From an uncultured Verrucomicrobiae bacterium (lineage in GTDB: Bacteria; Acidobacteriota; Terriglobia; Terriglobales; Acidobacteriaceae): a DNA stretch of 64,000 nt. Positions 2,546 through 24,608 of the stretch are shown here, piece after piece. Where the stretch lies: the NCBI GenBank assembly GCA_963717535.1, contig OY970344.1:35306-99305 (forward strand), given 5' to 3'. The translations under genes and the position numbers were made by a program. Each line of letters starts with the position of its first letter. Positions within the stretch are counted from its first letter, which is position 1. The notes beneath the pieces are model-generated. The model searched no databases, was not told the DNA's origin, and saw nothing but the letters and a program-made list of their open reading frames with translations.

Positions 2546-2873
2546 AGGTTTCTCCGTGGTTTGAACTTTCTAATCTACGACAGGGCTCGCGTTGGTGGGT
2601 ACCCGACGGCTGGATTGGCGGCCACCCGTACTGTCGCGCCACAATTTCCGGCAAGCGCCGCTTGATCGCTCGGCAGAGCGCAGGGCTGGGCCACGGCGAG
2701 CCCTGAGGCAAGCGAACGAGTCTGATCCATGTCGTATCGTTCTGAGCCGAAAGAAGTGAACCCCAAGGCGGCATGCAGAGCAAGTGAACCCGGCTGCGGG
2801 GCAACGTCTTCCCGGACCGTCCAAGGTCCAGAGTTAGGTATCATCTGCTAACTCGTTCTCTTAAGGTGGTGAG

Positions 2874-3830
2874 ATGTCGCAGAGCACGTTGCAGGTCGGC
2901 CAACTCGTCGCGGCGCAAAGCGAGAGGCGCTACGGTGTCATTGAACTTTCAGTCGGGGGCCAACCTTACAGAGTTCCCCTCTGGTTGATCAACGGAGACG
3001 AGACGGGTCCGACCCTGGTTGTGACGGGCGGGGTACACGGCGCGGAATACGCGAGCATTGCGGCAGCGCTTGACCTTGGTCGCTCGCTGGATCCCAAGGG
3101 CCTGCGCGGAAGGGTGATCGTGGTGCCGGTGGTCAACCTGCCCGGCTTTGCGGCTCGGTCGATTTACGTCTGTCCTCTTGATGGGAAGAATCCGAATCGA
3201 GTGTTTCCTGGCGATGCAGGCGGGAGCGGCTCGGAGCAGATCGCGGACTGGGTCTTTCGCAACGTGATTTCTCAAGCGGATTACTACGTGGACTTGCACG
3301 GCGGCGATCTGATTGAGGCACTCGTCCCCTTCACCATCTTCTTCCGCTCCGGCAACGAGCAGGTAGACGCGGTCTCGCTCGAGATGGCAAAGGCCTTTGG
3401 GATCCACTACCTGGTGCGCAGTGAAACTCCGGGGTCCACCATCTCCGCCGCATCCCGCGCTGGGATCCCCTCCATCCTTACGGAGTCAGGTGGGCAGGGG
3501 GTATGGACGGCAGAACAGGTCGCCGACCATACCAACGGACTTCAACGCTTGATGAGCTATCTCAAGATGGTCCCGGATCCTGCCCCGGAGCCAACTGCGT
3601 TCACGCTCTTGGAGCAGTTTCTTTGGGGACGCAGTGAGCATGAGGGCTTGTGGTATCCGCAGGTGTCCGTGGGTGAGAGGGTTCGTTCCGGTCAGGAACT
3701 CGGATGCATCAAGGACTGGGAAGGCAATGTGCTACAGAGAAGCCTCAGTCCTGAAAACGGCACTGTGCTCTTCCTGGTGTCGTCGTTGGCGATCCATGCG
3801 GGCGAGCCTCTCTTCGCCGTGGGCGCATGA
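2874..3830 (+). CDS. Succinylglutamate desuccinylase/aspartoacylase-family (M14-like) Zn hydrolase
   Basis: GGVHGAEY, NPNRVFPG, DLHGG and ESGG motifs. C-terminal lipoyl-like hairpin (VSVGERVRSGQELG). Confidence 0.9.
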   Translation: MSQSTLQVGQLVAAQSERRYGVIELSVGGQPYRVPLWLINGDETGPTLVVTGGVHGAEYASIAAALDLGRSLDPKGLRGRVIVVPVVNLPGFAARSIYVCPLDGKNPNRVFPGDAGGSGSEQIADWVFRNVISQADYYVDLHGGDLIEALVPFTIFFRSGNEQVDAVSLEMAKAFGIHYLVRSETPGSTISAASRAGIPSILTESGGQGVWTAEQVADHTNGLQRLMSYLKMVPDPAPEPTAFTLLEQFLWGRSEHEGLWYPQVSVGERVRSGQELGCIKDWEGNVLQRSLSPENGTVLFLVSSLAIHAGEPLFAVGA

Positions 3831-3924
3831 CGACGCTAGAGCTGTTTCTCACCTGGCACTTGGCGTGTCGCGGGACGATTACGGATGGGGCTTGGATCCG
3901 GCAATTCGGGGCACACTATAGAGC

Positions 3925-5100
3925 ATGCGGAAACCGCTTCTGGCGTTGACAGCTGCTGCGTTCGGGATTGGGACGTCGGAGTTCATTATCGTCGGCCTGC
4001 TGCCTACGCTTGCTCATGACTTTTCGGTGAGCATACCGAAAGCGGGCATTCTGGTGACGGCGTATGCGCTTTCGGTGACGATTGGCTCGCCGGTGGTGGC
4101 GCTGGCGTTGGGGCGGGTGGACCGGAAGACATCGTTGCTGCTGCTGATGGGGATGTTTGCCTTAGGGAACACCCTGTGCGCGCTGGCGCCGAGCTACGGC
4201 CTGCTGATCGGCGCACGGATTCTGACGGCGCTTTGCCATGGAGCGTTTTTTGGGATTGGCAGTGTGGTGGCGGCCAATCTTGTGCCGCGGCAGGAACGGG
4301 CGCAGGCCATTGCGCTGATGTTTACCGGGCTGACACTTGCCAACATCCTGGGCGTGCCGGCGGGGACGGCGCTGGGGTTGCGGCTGGGGTGGAGGGCGGC
4401 ATTCTGGGCTTTGGTGCCGATTGGTCTGGTCGCGATCGGTCTGCTCTGGCGGCTGATTCCGCATCAGCCTGCGCAGCCGACGCCGCTGCGCGGGGAACTG
4501 CACCAGGTGCTGAAGGCGCCGGTTCTGTTGGTGCTTGGGATTAGCACGCTGTCTTCGGTTTCGTTGTTTTGCGTGTTCACGTATGTCTCGCCGATGCTGG
4601 CGGGGATCACTCATCTTTCGCCGGACGCTGTGACCTGGGCGCTGGTGGCGTTTGGGACGGGGATTACTGTGGGGAACCTGCTGGGCGGGCGGCTGGGGGA
4701 CTGGCGGCAGATGGGCACAGTGATCGGCGCGTTTACGACGCTGACCGTGGTTCTGGTGTTGCTGCCGTTGCTGTTGATTCGTCCGGCCTGGGCGATGGTT
4801 GGGGTGTTTGTTTGGGGGCTGGTTCACTTCTCCGGAGGCATACCCTTGCAGACCCGGGTGGTGGAGAAGGCTAAGGGCGCGAACCTGGCGTCCACGTTGA
4901 ATCAGAGTGCGTTCAACCTGGGGAATGCGTTGGGTGCGAGCCTGGGTGGGATCCTGCTTACCCGCGGGCTTGGCTACGGCGTGCTCCCGTATGCGTCGGC
5001 TGCGGTGGCCGTGGTGGCTACTTTGCTGAGCCTGGTCGCGCTGTGGGTGGAGCGCAAGTACCCCCACGAGAGCAGCACGGACTTTTTCCAGGCGATCTGA
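3925..5100 (+). CDS. MFS transporter (DHA1, YdhP/NepI-like)
   Basis: About 12 hydrophobic helices. GTSEFIIVGLLP start motif, GRVDRK loop, HGAFFGIG, ANILGVPAG, NQSAFNLGNALG. Confidence 0.92.
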   Translation: MRKPLLALTAAAFGIGTSEFIIVGLLPTLAHDFSVSIPKAGILVTAYALSVTIGSPVVALALGRVDRKTSLLLLMGMFALGNTLCALAPSYGLLIGARILTALCHGAFFGIGSVVAANLVPRQERAQAIALMFTGLTLANILGVPAGTALGLRLGWRAAFWALVPIGLVAIGLLWRLIPHQPAQPTPLRGELHQVLKAPVLLVLGISTLSSVSLFCVFTYVSPMLAGITHLSPDAVTWALVAFGTGITVGNLLGGRLGDWRQMGTVIGAFTTLTVVLVLLPLLLIRPAWAMVGVFVWGLVHFSGGIPLQTRVVEKAKGANLASTLNQSAFNLGNALGASLGGILLTRGLGYGVLPYASAAVAVVATLLSLVALWVERKYPHESSTDFFQAI

Positions 5101-20390: not shown

Positions 20391-21213
20391 ATGAGCAATG
20401 CGGTGATGGAGCGGGCTGAAGCGGTGAGCATGACTTCGGGTGCGGATGACCTGGTGATTGCAGGACGGCGCTTCCGGTCGCGTCTGATTGTTGGGACTGG
20501 AAAGTATAAGGATGGGCCGGAGACGAAGGCTGCGATTGAGGCTTCCGGGGCCGAGATGGTCACGGTAGCGGTGCGGCGCGTGAATCTCGACCGCTCGCAG
20601 GAAAGTCTGCTGGACTTACATCGATCCGGTGCGGTACTTCCTGCTGCCCAATACAGCTGGATGCTACACGGCCGAGGAGGCAATCCGGGCCGCCAGACTG
20701 GCGCGCGAGGTCGGGCTGTCCGACTGGGTAAAGATCGAGGTCATCGGCGATCAGGCGACCCTTTACCCCGACGTGCAGGCTACCGTTGAGGCGACAAGAG
20801 TTCTTGTGAAAGAGGGATTTACTGTTCTGCCGTATACCACGGATGACATCGTGTTTGCGAAGCGGCTGATCGACGTCGGTGCGGCAGCGGTGATGCCGCT
20901 TGGCGCGCCGATCGGGACGGGGTTAGGGATTGCGAACTCATACACGCTCCGGATGATGCGGGAGCTGATCACGGAGGTCCCGCTGGTCGTCGATGCAGGG
21001 CTGGGTACCGCGAGCGATGCGGCCCTTGCGATGGAGATGGGCTTCGATGCGGTGCTGTTGAATACCGCAATGGCAGGCGCAAAGAACCCTGTGCTGATGA
21101 GTTCAGCGATGCGCAAGGGGACGGAGGCTGGGCGGGAGGCGTTCCTGGCCGGCCGGATGCCGAAGAAGCTGTATGCGACTGCGAGTTCGCCGTTGGAGGG
21201 GATCTCGCGGTAG
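20391..21213 (+). CDS. thiG: Thiazole synthase, split by a +1 frameshift at about 20616 (probable sequence error)
   Basis: Frame 1: [10 protein letters not shown]...EMVTVAVRR. Frame 2: [39 protein letters not shown]. Removing one T from GACTTAC restores [16 protein letters not shown]. Confidence 0.93.
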
Positions 21214-21783: not shown

Positions 21784-23265
21784 CTAAGCCACAACACCCG
21801 CGAGACTCGATCGGAGTGGGGCGAGGCGCGTCTGTTCGAGGTCGTCGCGGTAGAAGAGGTTGTAGGTGTCGAAGGGGATGAGGCGCTGGGCGTCGGGGTG
21901 GGCGATGTGGATGCAGGTCTTGCGGATGGAGCGCAGGTCGAAGCTGTCGGCGTCGATGAACTGAACGATGAGGATGCGGAAGAGGTTTTGGTACGAGAGG
22001 TTTTTGGGACTCAGGACCTGTGGCAGGCAGCATAGGAGATCGCGAAGGGTGCTGGCCTGGGACTGCGGCGAGTGATTGGTGGAAAAGAGCTTGAAGAGCC
22101 CTTCTTTCACCGGGTTTGCGGCGGCTTTGGCGAGCAACTCCGGGTTCCGGGCGAGGTGCGCGCGGATGCCGCTGTCCTGTTCATAGATGATGGTGTTGGC
22201 CGCGCCGTTGATGAGTACCTCGGGCGGAATGAGGCTGGTGAGTGGGGTGACGTTGCCTGCGAGTTTCAGGGCGTAGCCCATGGCGAGCGAGTCGGGGTGG
22301 CACGGAACGGGGATGATGTCTTCGGGCTTGAAGACGGAGGTCTGCTCGAGGATGCGACGCCGGACTTCGGTGAGGGTGAGTCGGTGCTGGGCGGGGTCGT
22401 AGCCGCCGAGGCGCCCGGCCTGTTGAACCGGCTGAAAGGTGACGCCCCGGATGCAGGGCTGTGTGAGAGCGAAGTCGACTATGGCGCCGAGTTCGGTGTC
22501 GTTGACGCCGCGCTCGACGGTGACGACGAGGGTCGTGGAGATGCCGAGTTCGTTGAGGCGGGCGAGGGCACGTTCGCGGATGCTCCGCAGGTCGGCGCCG
22601 CGGAGCTGCATCAGCGGATCGCGTTTGAGAGAGTCGAACTGGAGGTAGAGTTCGAAGCGGGGCATGTACGTGGCGAGGCGCTGGGCAAAGGCCGCGTCGG
22701 TGGCGATACGGATGCCGTTGGTGTTGACCATCAGGTGCTTGATGGGGCGCTGTTTGGCGGCGTCGAGGACCTCGAAGAACTGCGGATGGATGGTGGGTTC
22801 GCCGCCGGAGATCTGGACGATGTCAGGCTCCATCTCGTTGCGGACGATGGTGTCGAGCATGCGTTCGATCTGCTCGAGTGAACGATGCGTGGTGCGATGG
22901 GTGCCGCTTGAGGCGTAGCAGATGGGGCAGTCGAGGTTGCAGACGTCGGTGATCTCCAGCAGCGTGAGGCAGGAGTGCTGCTCGTGGTCGGGGCAGAGGC
23001 CGCAGTCGTAGGGGCAGCCGTATTTCACGGGTGTGTTGAAGTGCTGCGGCATCTCGGGTGGCTTGAGGAAGACTTCGCGGCAGCGGCGGTAGTAGTCGAC
23101 GTCGTCGGCCATGAGGATGCGCTGGAAGCCGTGGGTGGGGCAGCGCTTGAGCATGTAGACGTGATTGTCTTCGAAGACGATCTTGGCATCGACGCGGCGG
23201 AAGCAGGTCGCGCAAAGGGAGACCGCGGTGTCGTAGAAGAGGTAGGGGCGGGTGGGTGCGGTCAT
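21784..23265 (-). CDS. Radical SAM enzyme of the tetraether synthase (Tes/GDGT-MAS, MJ0619)-like family
   Basis: From ATG 23265: rubredoxin-like C18xxC21...C42PTH45, auxiliary GC84PYDC88GLC91PDH, radical SAM C109NLDC113PIC116, SGGEPT, NTNG, YLQFD, and C-terminal KTCIHIAHPD..LIPFDTYN. Confidence 0.85.
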   Translation of the reverse strand: MTAPTRPYLFYDTAVSLCATCFRRVDAKIVFEDNHVYMLKRCPTHGFQRILMADDVDYYRRCREVFLKPPEMPQHFNTPVKYGCPYDCGLCPDHEQHSCLTLLEITDVCNLDCPICYASSGTHRTTHRSLEQIERMLDTIVRNEMEPDIVQISGGEPTIHPQFFEVLDAAKQRPIKHLMVNTNGIRIATDAAFAQRLATYMPRFELYLQFDSLKRDPLMQLRGADLRSIRERALARLNELGISTTLVVTVERGVNDTELGAIVDFALTQPCIRGVTFQPVQQAGRLGGYDPAQHRLTLTEVRRRILEQTSVFKPEDIIPVPCHPDSLAMGYALKLAGNVTPLTSLIPPEVLINGAANTIIYEQDSGIRAHLARNPELLAKAAANPVKEGLFKLFSTNHSPQSQASTLRDLLCCLPQVLSPKNLSYQNLFRILIVQFIDADSFDLRSIRKTCIHIAHPDAQRLIPFDTYNLFYRDDLEQTRLAPLRSSLAGVVA

Positions 23266-23501
23266 TTGCGTAATCGGCCCAAGATGAGTCGGGCAATAGA
23301 GAGCAGGCCGATGATGAGCATGCCGAGAAGGCTGCTCCAGAAGAGGAAGGCACCAGTTTCGATGACGATTGGGGATACGCGCTCGTTGCCGATCAGGACA
23401 CCGATGCCACATGTGCCCACGCCAATACCCGCACCAATGCTGCAAAGCACAAGCGCTTTGGTGAAGTCGACGGCATCACTCTTCGCGAACTGCTCGAACA
23501 T
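23262..23501 (-). CDS. Small two-helix membrane protein with G-T-C-G-I box (79 aa)
   Basis: Its TGA overlaps the radical SAM ATG (ATGA at 23262-23265). Two hydrophobic segments. Aligns with the 23564-23860 protein. Confidence 0.75.
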   Translation of the reverse strand: MFEQFAKSDAVDFTKALVLCSIGAGIGVGTCGIGVLIGNERVSPIVIETGAFLFWSSLLGMLIIGLLSIARLILGRLRK

Positions 23502-23563
23502 GGGTCAGCGTGGGCCTGGGGAGTTTGGTTGAGTATACGGACAGGAGGCGCCTAGGGTGTGAG

Positions 23564-23860
23564 TCATGGCTTGCCGGACTTGAATCTGTCGAGCAGGACT
23601 GCGGTCAGCAGGCCCAACAGCGAGAAGCAAAGGCCCAACGCACCGACAAGCATTCCAAGAAGCTCGAGCGCACCCAGTGCGACCAGCACCACGCCTGCCG
23701 TGTTCCTGGCGGGGCTCGAGGAGGTGCCTCCGCGGGCGAGCCCGAACAAGTTGAAGCTGACGTAGTTGATGCCGCAAAGGCCAGCGGAGATCAGGAGAGC
23801 GACACCGAACAGAGTCGTGGCGCGGAACCAGACGTCGCGGTCGGTCCTGGAGCTAGACAT
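23564..23860 (-). CDS. Small two-helix membrane protein with G-L-C-G-I box (98 aa)
   Basis: Its ATG overlaps the Lgt-like stop (ATGTCTAG). Two hydrophobic segments. Paralogous to the 23262-23501 protein. Confidence 0.78.
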   Translation of the reverse strand: MSSSRTDRDVWFRATTLFGVALLISAGLCGINYVSFNLFGLARGGTSSSPARNTAGVVLVALGALELLGMLVGALGLCFSLLGLLTAVLLDRFKSGKP

Positions 23861-24608
23861 GCTCCAGTCCTTGCTCGGCGACCGCAGCGCCCTCAGGGCG
23901 ACGATCCGAGACCGCGTTGAACGCGACGAAGAAGAGGCCGAGCAGGCAGCCCCATTGAATCAGGTTCATGCCAAGGACCGTGGGTTGAGGCTTCAGAAAA
24001 TCGATCAGCAGGCGCCAGGTAAGGTAGGCGGCCATGAAGAGGCGAAACGTCGAGCCGTTGGTGTGGGAACGGCGGCTCTGCCAGTGGAGAAGGCCAGCGA
24101 GTGTCGTGAGGAAGACAATCTCATAAAGCTGGGTGGGGTGTCGGGGGATGCCGTCACCGAAGTCGACAGCCCACGGGAGCGTGGTGGGTTTGCCGAACGT
24201 ATCGTCCGCCAAGCCGGCGAGAAAGCAGCCGATGCGGCCGACGGCCACGCCGATGCAGAGAGGGAGGGCGAAGAGGTCGCCCGTGCGGGTGCGGATGTTC
24301 TGGATCTTTTTGGTGAACTCGACGACCAGCCAGCCGCCAAGCAGGCCACCGACGATGGTCTTGCCACCGCCGGGCAGCAGGGCTTGCGTCCAGGTGATGT
24401 GAATGCGGGGTGCCTGCTCCAGTAGACCGAGCAGACGGCTGCCGAGGAGTGCGCCTACTGTTGCTGCGGCGATGATGCTCCAGCGCTGCTGCTGGCTGAG
24501 CACGTCGCCGGCGCTACGGCGTCGACGTTTGTAGGTCGCGAAGCCAAGTACGTAGCCCAGCGTCTCAAAAAGAGGGTGAAGCGCGGGAAGGGGGTGCAGG
24601 TGAAGCAC
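23853..24608 (-). CDS. Prolipoprotein diacylglyceryl transferase-like protein (divergent Lgt paralog)
   Basis: GRIGCF, FGKPTTLPWAVDF, RHPTQLYE and Y..WR..IDF. The SFHGG motif is replaced by KTIVGG. Confidence 0.88.
   Translation of the reverse strand: MLHLHPLPALHPLFETLGYVLGFATYKRRRRSAGDVLSQQQRWSIIAAATVGALLGSRLLGLLEQAPRIHITWTQALLPGGGKTIVGGLLGGWLVVEFTKKIQNIRTRTGDLFALPLCIGVAVGRIGCFLAGLADDTFGKPTTLPWAVDFGDGIPRHPTQLYEIVFLTTLAGLLHWQSRRSHTNGSTFRLFMAAYLTWRLLIDFLKPQPTVLGMNLIQWGCLLGLFFVAFNAVSDRRPEGAAVAEQGLEHV

Follow-up and report, generated by a model that had tools for sequence, protein, structure and literature searches.

The window analyzed here, a stretch of 64,000 nucleotides from an uncultured acidobacterium (contig OY970344.1; Acidobacteriaceae by GTDB lineage), carries a cassette of four minus-strand genes that encode: (i) a paralog of Lgt, the prolipoprotein diacylglyceryl transferase, (ii) two small membrane proteins, termed microprotein 1 (mp1) and microprotein 2 (mp2), and (iii) an enzyme of the radical S-adenosylmethionine (SAM) type (rSAM) that is related to archaeal Tes/GDGT-MAS. 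The four genes are confirmed and represent the form that a module of many bacterial phyla takes in the Acidobacteriaceae. Its three components are inherited together, are translationally coupled and move as one unit, and the conclusion that they work together is well supported. The Lgt paralog is proposed to S-lipidate an intramembrane cysteine of the small proteins and the rSAM to remodel the tails of the attached lipid, a reading that is drawn from sequence relationships and to which a probability of about 0.4 is assigned.

The coupling of the genes is evident at two overlaps. The stop codon of the Lgt paralog (TAG, 23855-23853) lies inside ATGTCTAG, and the ATG of ATGTCTAG (23860-23858) is the start codon of mp1, giving an overlap of 8 nt. 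A gap of 62 nt separates mp1 from mp2, and the stop codon of mp2 (TGA, 23264-23262) overlaps the ATG of the rSAM (23265-23263) to form ATGA. This ATG is backed by the N-termini of rSAM homologs; a mechanical list of open reading frames (ORFs) runs on to a TTG at 23445. An earlier note on this DNA, prepared from the letters alone, had described four same-strand genes joined by overlaps at these two places, and all are present as described (Table 1).

Table 1. Coordinates of the cassette genes, of selected codons and motifs within them, and of one nearby gene (positions are those of the window)
Feature	Position	Strand	Description
Lgt-family paralog	23853-24608	minus	251 residues, GTG start, seven predicted transmembrane helices; PF01790
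Cys128 codon of paralog	24227-24225	minus	motif GRIGCF; in place of E. coli Lgt N146
mp1	23564-23860	minus	98 residues, two transmembrane helices; motif SAGLCG
Cys29 codon of mp1	23776-23774	minus
mp2	23262-23501	minus	79 residues, two transmembrane helices; motif VGTCG
Cys31 codon of mp2	23411-23409	minus
Tes/GDGT-MAS-like rSAM	21784-23265	minus	493 residues; PF23545 and PF04055
Radical SAM motif of rSAM	22918-22941	minus	CNLDCPIC
thiG-like (thiazole synthase) gene	20391-21213	plus	split over two frames, N-terminal part in the frame of 20391 and remainder in the next frame

Conservation and mobility of the module

Linkage of the two enzymes is assessed from a scan of one genome per GTDB species in which the query is an alignment of the rSAM alone. 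The scan yields 587 confirmed relatives, and the counts given here cover the best 80 of these. The 80 rSAMs are 57-88% identical across phyla, and the Lgt paralogs are 31-69% identical (same-strand pairs). The paralog is encoded upstream of the rSAM on the same strand in 57 of the 80 loci and abuts or overlaps the rSAM (gap ≤60 nt) in 34 of the 57. It is found nearby in six more, either directly downstream (3/80) or on the opposite strand (3/80). Nine loci lie on contigs that are too short or end too early for a count, and the other eight, which lack the paralog, are weighed below. The 80 loci include: (i) Acidobacteriota (Acidobacteriaceae, Granulicella, Paracidobacterium, Terracidiphilus, Bryobacterales, Vicinamibacteria and Holophagae), (ii) Bacillota (seven Paenibacillus plus Brevibacillus, Neobacillus, Niallia, Ectobacillus and Aeribacillus), and (iii) Planctomycetota, Myxococcota, Rhodanobacter/Dyella (Pseudomonadota), Burkholderiaceae, Longimicrobium, Methylacidiphilales and Elusimicrobiota. 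When all ORFs of the 80 loci are clustered, no widely shared neighbor is apparent besides the paralog and the small proteins. The claim of the earlier note that the genes form a dedicated unit is borne out by this conservation of linkage across phyla, the lack of which the note had named as refuting. What is conserved is a core of three components and not the four-gene order of the note, which is that of Acidobacteriaceae-type loci; in most phyla the enzymes abut.

The module is also encoded on a plasmid. In Chondrinema litorale, a cultured member of the Bacteroidota, a triad is present at positions 2774-5094 of the 163-kb plasmid NZ_CP111057 (locus L169), where it is annotated as a 'prolipoprotein diacylglyceryl transferase family protein', followed by a 'radical SAM protein' and a 64-residue hypothetical protein that ends KKSKPKAAKVLFIIAGIYFVIGAGVCGSFF. 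Thus, the module is accessory and mobile.

One protein of 733 residues (P0195) joins an LGT domain (residues 4-236), an HMPTM zinc ribbon and a radical SAM domain in a single chain. It is 49% identical to the window rSAM and keeps the signature motif of the paralog as GRVGCF. The order of LGT and rSAM in P0195 is consistent with a C-terminus of Lgt in the cytoplasm. When P0195 was used to search metagenome contigs, the 80 loci had adjacent but separate genes and no second LGT-rSAM fusion. These metagenome loci, which were retrieved with a query that holds both enzymes, are used for the analysis of small proteins only and not for the adjacency of the pair.

Two loci stand apart from the general distribution. 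A metagenome-assembled genome labeled Rhodanobacteraceae (L007, 1692-5221) carries a cassette of Acidobacteriaceae type, in which the microprotein gene is present four times and the rSAM is 73% identical to that of the window. True Rhodanobacter/Dyella loci carry the downstream type of small protein (see below) instead, which suggests a binning error or a recent transfer for L007. A plasmid of Mycolicibacterium vanbaalenii (NZ_CP126902; L170, 3471-5054) encodes a Tes/TrsS-like rSAM that is more remote (38% identity) and scores under both the Tes and the TrsS cut-offs. Its neighbors are CcdA, a methyltransferase, a second rSAM and a protein disulfide oxidoreductase; an Lgt paralog is absent, such that the same clade occurs here in another gene context.

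The cassette is flanked in the window by a DUF1015 gene upstream and a Uma2 endonuclease-like gene downstream, neither of which is a conserved partner in the 80 rSAM loci. A scan for promoters and terminators returns counts within shuffle expectation, and an Rfam scan of the window returns zero matches. The split of the nearby thiG-like gene has the look of a frameshift at about 20610-20640, which would stem from a sequencing error or mark a pseudogene.

Small proteins with an invariant cysteine

The enzymes of Acidobacteriaceae-type loci are separated by 184-1400 nt, within which are one to four same-strand small ORFs of 64-119 residues. The encoded microproteins have a polar N-terminus that ends in Lys/Arg, a hydrophobic helix that ends in [SF][LF]-G-L-C-G, a short loop, a second helix and a basic C-terminus. 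The Gly and Cys are the only invariant residues in an alignment that was built by position and not by motif (mean identity 24%). Both window microproteins carry G-x-C-G (AGLCG in mp1, GTCG in mp2), and both are members of the family by profile (E 1.3e-16 for mp1 and 2.9e-15 for mp2), mp2 being a paralog of mp1. Across the 80 loci and the window, 45 ORFs match the profile, each of them positioned between the Lgt paralog and the rSAM. When searched against 5.8 billion proteins, the profile retrieves 71 clusters, all annotated as hypothetical, in which mp1 and mp2 are listed as P0127 and P0183, respectively. Three of the 71 clusters were looked up and lead to eight places, every one of which has the order LGT, microprotein (4-nt overlap), second microprotein and rSAM. 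The flanks of the eight places are mutually unrelated; thus, the cassette travels as a unit. Spurious ORFs were considered and are ruled out by the profile family, the public gene calls, the position between the enzymes and the recurrence in independent contigs. No Pfam or NCBIfam model matches mp1 or mp2.

Other proteins occupy the gap between the enzymes in certain Terriglobia. Terracidiphilus-type cassettes (L012:5435-6004, L014:1501-2067, L015:5395-5985 and L016:5374-5922) encode an extra protein of 182-196 residues between the microprotein and the rSAM. This protein has a classical lipoprotein signal peptide (…GILACGACF…) and no Pfam domain, and it may be a further cargo of the lipidation system. 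In some Terriglobia (L018:730-1659, L020:4569-5708, L029:4857-5723 and L032:3874-4818), the microproteins are replaced by polytopic membrane proteins of 288-379 residues, which have an N-terminal helix with a cysteine after a K/R flank and match no Pfam family. Curated Pfam or NCBIfam models are available neither for the small proteins nor for the larger gap proteins.

Where the enzymes abut, a different small protein (64-145 residues, about three transmembrane helices) starts at or overlaps the stop codon of the rSAM. This downstream protein has a basic loop followed by a last helix that ends …ITFLLN-A-A-C-F-G, after which just 4-13 residues remain. The cysteine is the sole column that is 100% conserved in an alignment of 25 sequences, and the residues leading up to it are A-A-C, A-G-C or S-A-C. 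The gene is often tandemly duplicated, with up to three copies.

The geometry of the cysteine is common to the two families. The uncharged run that precedes it has a median of 15 or 19 residues in the two families, with Lys/Arg ahead of the run, and the uncharged run that follows has a median of 10 or 8 residues. This arrangement can be expressed as a motif that is independent of family: K/R, 11-24 uncharged and mostly hydrophobic residues, Cys, and at least five uncharged residues. Of 520 small ORFs next to the enzyme pair, 106 have the motif, compared to 18 of 3452 located >1.5 kb away (odds ratio 49, Fisher p 3e-78). At least 87 of 119 loci hold an ORF with the motif, and manual inspection of the misses added more. 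The small Cys protein tracks the Lgt paralog: in the rSAM-only genome set, 50 of the 57 loci that have the paralog upstream also have a detected small Cys protein, compared to one of the eight full-flank loci without the paralog (p 3.5e-5).

The position of the cysteine, as predicted from the charge pattern, matches that of the cysteine in a lipobox, where a helix with its N-terminus inside reaches the outer side, and the K/R flank and hydrophobic run of the microproteins are lipoprotein-like. The residues at the cysteine are not: the lipobox consensus [LVI][ASTVI][GAS]C is absent from the window microproteins (A-G-L-C and V-G-T-C) and differs from the family consensus of [SF][LF]-G-L-C-G. The Cys-box microproteins of the earlier note hold up in having an invariant cysteine 15-20 uncharged residues past a cytoplasmic Lys/Arg, but G-L-C-G is not a canonical lipobox. 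Cleavage of the window-family helix by LspA (signal peptidase II) is argued against by the Leu at position -1. The invariant cysteine of the microproteins is probably the residue that receives the lipid, and the modified helix is probably not cleaved off but stays in place.

The Lgt paralog and the Tes-like radical SAM enzyme

The paralog of the window is an Lgt-family protein by domain match (PF01790, 101 bits vs. a cut-off of 24.9, E 8.7e-29, residues 14-230) and by fold. Its AlphaFold2 model (predicted local distance difference test, pLDDT, 83) has a sole significant match in the PDB, the E. coli Lgt (5AZB; E 1e-8, probability 1.0, template modeling score 0.66). Nonetheless, the paralog falls under all six NCBIfam equivalog cut-offs for Lgt (e.g., 56.9 vs. 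118.9 for TIGR00544 and 64.7 vs. 334 for NF000778). The Paenibacillus member is likewise below the cut-offs, and the Chondrinema member has no model match at E ≤ 1e-10. There is no curated model for the paralog subfamily.

The residues of the paralog were mapped by a HMMER alignment to 5AZB and compared with a published residue analysis, in which Y26, H103, R143, N146, G154 and R239 are absolutely required in E. coli Lgt (PMC13251419). Kept in the paralog are G142, R143 and G145, the PRHPxQLYE motif (H196), and Y235 and R239. E243 is Asp and R246 is Lys, whereas Y26 is replaced by His11, H103 by Val86, N146 by Cys128 and N149 by Ala; G154 is ambiguous owing to a 3-residue length difference. 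The cysteine of GRIGC (Cys128) sits at the catalytic signature and, along with R125 and R199, is ≥90% conserved in the paralog family, in the case of Cys128 across all phyla. The positive-inside pattern of the loops predicts the canonical N-out/C-in topology, in which every conserved motif would lie on the outer side. Compared to E. coli Lgt, the periplasmic head domain is greatly reduced.

A housekeeping lgt was considered for this gene and is all but excluded by the equivalog cut-offs, the residue substitutions and the conserved linkage; no other Lgt-family gene is present within the 64-kb window. In line with the earlier note, which called it an Lgt paralog, the protein is a divergent paralog and not the canonical enzyme, as is apparent from its scores, from the Y26H/H103V/N146C substitutions and from its location on a plasmid in one species. 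Compared to E. coli Lgt (5AZB/5AZC), the paralog shares the LGT domain, the seven-helix fold, the predicted N-out/C-in topology and R143/Y235/R239, and in both systems the partner protein offers a membrane-embedded cysteine after a positive flank and a hydrophobic run. By contrast, the paralog is encoded beside its own putative substrates and an rSAM, the substrate motif is G-L-C-G, and the helix of the substrate is probably kept. The N146C substitution is also noted in 'distant' Lgt proteins, and MSMEG_5408, a second and minor Lgt homolog of Mycolicibacterium smegmatis that is not the main Lgt, is reported to have Y26H and N146C (PMC13251419). The paralog has the same pair (His11 and Cys128), a likeness that consists of two residues taken from one paper.

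The rSAM matches Zn_ribbon_HMPTM (PF23545) and Radical_SAM (PF04055), with an N-terminal Cys/His zinc ribbon, a GCPYDCGLCP auxiliary-cluster motif and the radical SAM motif listed in Table 1. As the earlier note had proposed, the enzyme is a true homolog of GDGT-MAS/Tes: residues 14-322 and 423-485 align with the archaeal structure 7TOL (E 2.4e-66), with residues 323-422 having no alignment. Twelve residues are invariant (C18, C21, C42, H45, C84, C88, C91, C99, C109, C113, C116 and C451) and, with the exception of C99, align to the same residues in 7TOL; C322 aligns to a Ser. The AlphaFold2 model of the rSAM, from a shallow alignment, is of poor confidence (pLDDT 48.5).

Curated models place the rSAM near, and not within, the named families of this clade. 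The enzyme scores 262 bits vs. a cut-off of 450 for Tes (NF045702; match limited to residues 15-323) and 308 bits vs. 490 for TrsS (NF045646), which is its best-scoring NCBIfam model. Relatives from other phyla score 312-341 bits for TrsS and are also below the cut-off. Thus, the rSAMs of the module form a separate bacterial subfamily of the Tes clade. Models of peptide maturases match the rSAM weakly (29-43 bits), with SPASM peptide maturases at 30-60 bits. Clustering at 50% leaves essentially a single full-length representative for the entire subfamily, since the rSAM is unusually conserved across phyla.

The rSAM shares with archaeal Tes/GDGT-MAS (MJ0619, 7TOL) the ribbon, GCPYDCGLCP, CxxxCxxC and a C-terminal CIH motif, and by analogy with GDGT-MAS is likely to act on inert lipid-tail carbons. 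Unlike that enzyme, it is bacterial and its gene is coupled to those of an Lgt paralog and of small Cys proteins; neither a tetraether nor a membrane-spanning lipid has been linked to it. TrsS, a radical SAM (seleno)protein, is of the same Tes-related clade; the rSAM is without selenocysteine. Mss (Thermotoga, Clostridia) is alike in being a radical SAM enzyme that couples acyl-chain tails, and is a candidate analog for iso-diabolic acid formation. Mss is, by contrast, of another radical SAM family that is remotely related to Tes, with no Lgt paralog or small Cys protein reported, as compared by description only.

Proposed mechanism, alternatives and implications

In the proposed mechanism, one to four small proteins would insert with the N-terminus in the cytoplasm, such that the invariant cysteine is placed towards the outer leaflet, as their sequences indicate. 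The Lgt paralog would bind a glycerophospholipid, by means of the retained R143, R239 and Y235 equivalents that would contact the phosphate/glycerol, and would move the (diacyl)glyceryl group onto the cysteine as a thioether, the sole chemistry known for its family. The Tes-like rSAM would sit on the cytoplasmic face beside the cytoplasmic C-terminus of the paralog. There, as suggested by homology to GDGT-MAS, it would use a 5'-deoxyadenosyl radical and auxiliary Fe-S clusters on the inert terminal carbons of the attached acyl chains, coupling the chains with one another or with a second lipid, or otherwise functionalizing them. The outcome would be a small membrane protein carrying a covalently bound lipid that is remodeled and possibly macrocyclic or membrane-spanning. 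S-lipidation, cross-linking of the tails and the RiPP-like lipopeptide or membrane-spanning anchor put forward in the earlier note are candidate steps and products.

Several points weigh against this mechanism. The paralog has replacements of the essential Y26, H103 and N146 and, thus, its chemistry may differ from that of Lgt. The motif of the microproteins departs from the lipobox, and homology of the two small-protein families is not supported (hhalign probability 0.9%), although the best local alignment superposes their Cys helices. The paralog is absent from 8 of the 80 rSAM loci with full flanks available, and P0195, as a single fusion, could be an artefact of a frameshift or of gene calling. 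The sequencing runs that contain the window sequence are all of DNA or metagenomes, with no RNA runs. A geometric difficulty is that the active site of the paralog is predicted to face the outer leaflet and the rSAM to be cytoplasmic, such that action on the same lipid would need a special geometry. By way of speculation, the cysteine is about 22-30 Å (15-20 residues) from the cytoplasmic flank, a distance at which a C15-C16 acyl chain could approach the inner face.

A pathway that acts on lipids only is somewhat unlikely and is the foremost of the alternatives. The paralog would bind or extract a phospholipid and the rSAM would generate tail-to-tail coupled lipids (of iso-diabolic-acid type or macrocyclic), with the small Cys proteins serving as a scaffold or accessory (e.g., tethered by a disulfide to Cys128 of the paralog) and not as lipid acceptors. 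Such a pathway is consistent with the clear homology of the rSAM to GDGT-MAS, with the loss of Y26, H103 and N146, and with the invariant outer-side cysteine of both the paralog and the small proteins. It would also suit the Acidobacteria, in which Mss is absent and the enzyme that couples their iso-diabolic acid has not been identified (PMC13159169). Accessory subunits, however, are not expected to occur as one to four tandem and fast-diverging copies, nor to be drawn from two unrelated families that have just the K/R-helix-Cys geometry in common, and the module extends to Bacillales, Rhodanobacter, Planctomycetota and Bacteroidota, taxa with no report of such lipids.

It is unlikely that the small protein is itself the substrate of the rSAM, in the manner of a ribosomally synthesized and post-translationally modified peptide. 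According to this alternative, the rSAM would form a thioether or C-C link with the Cys helix or lipid tail, the paralog would supply or position the lipid, and a peptidase might then free a short C-terminal lipopeptide in the …NAAC-FG… family. The small genes do resemble those of precursors in their variable copy number and translational coupling to the rSAM, and the downstream family has few residues (4-13) after the cysteine and, as in cleavable lipoboxes, small residues at -1 and -2. By contrast, the rSAM is closest to enzymes that couple lipid tails and not to SPASM peptide maturases, the 80 loci have no conserved peptidase or transporter in the neighborhood, and the small proteins are polytopic membrane proteins, of which the window family has about 60 residues and a second helix after the cysteine.

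Coincidence, with a housekeeping lgt next to the rSAM by chance and small ORFs that are either spurious or of no relation, is highly improbable: public annotations do call the protein 'prolipoprotein diacylglyceryl transferase' and the 64-kb window has no canonical lgt, but the linkage is kept across phyla with differing flanks, the paralog is below all Lgt cut-offs with three essential residues substituted, the Chondrinema module is plasmid-borne, and the microproteins are a conserved, position-specific family called as genes elsewhere.

Lipidation of the cysteine followed by remodeling of the lipid, the reading preferred here, can be extended to the lipids of Acidobacteria. In its most specific form, the cysteine would be S-glycerolipidated and the tails C-C coupled to give a protein-bound macrocyclic or membrane-spanning lipid, a new type of protein lipidation that in Acidobacteria could belong to the missing route to iso-diabolic acid; this form is improbable. 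The iso-diabolic acid lipids of Acidobacteria are not extracted by solvents and come free solely when cells or the extraction residue are hydrolyzed (PMC5462960, PMC13274423), and the link is tempting because a protein-bound coupled lipid would be non-extractable. The amounts argue against it, as iso-diabolic acid accounts for 20-40% of fatty acids, too much for stoichiometric attachment to microproteins. The accessory nature and patchy distribution of the module also count against the link, and the relation to iso-diabolic acid or to brGDGTs (branched glycerol dialkyl glycerol tetraethers) is further weakened by the presence of the module in Bacillales, Rhodanobacter, Planctomycetota and Bacteroidota, which are without reported membrane-spanning lipids. 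Bacterial Tes homologs are cited as candidates for the synthesis of brGDGTs and membrane-spanning lipids, with none characterized (PMC8941075, PMC11868695, PMC13459092).

The earlier note knew of no description of this arrangement as a pathway. In agreement, the literature searched, which did not extend to the TrsS-defining paper, describes neither a pairing of an Lgt paralog with a Tes-like rSAM nor the small proteins. Both enzyme families are known; what is apparently new is their combination, the dedicated Cys proteins and the predicted chemistry.

A large and highly conserved bacterial subfamily of the Tes clade is, thus, not a stand-alone lipid enzyme but in nearly all cases is accompanied by genes for an Lgt paralog and for small Cys proteins. 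The module supplies candidate substrates for bacterial Tes-like enzymes and offers a rationale for the unexplained class of 'second Lgt' proteins with N146C. If lipidation plus coupling were true, the module would represent a new post-translational modification, and caution would be needed where counts of Tes homologs in metagenomes are used as a proxy for brGDGT producers. The module is widespread and cleanly delimited, and it is directly testable in cultured bacteria, with hosts that include Paenibacillus, Brevibacillus, Aeribacillus, Neobacillus, Granulicella, Paracidobacterium and Chondrinema.

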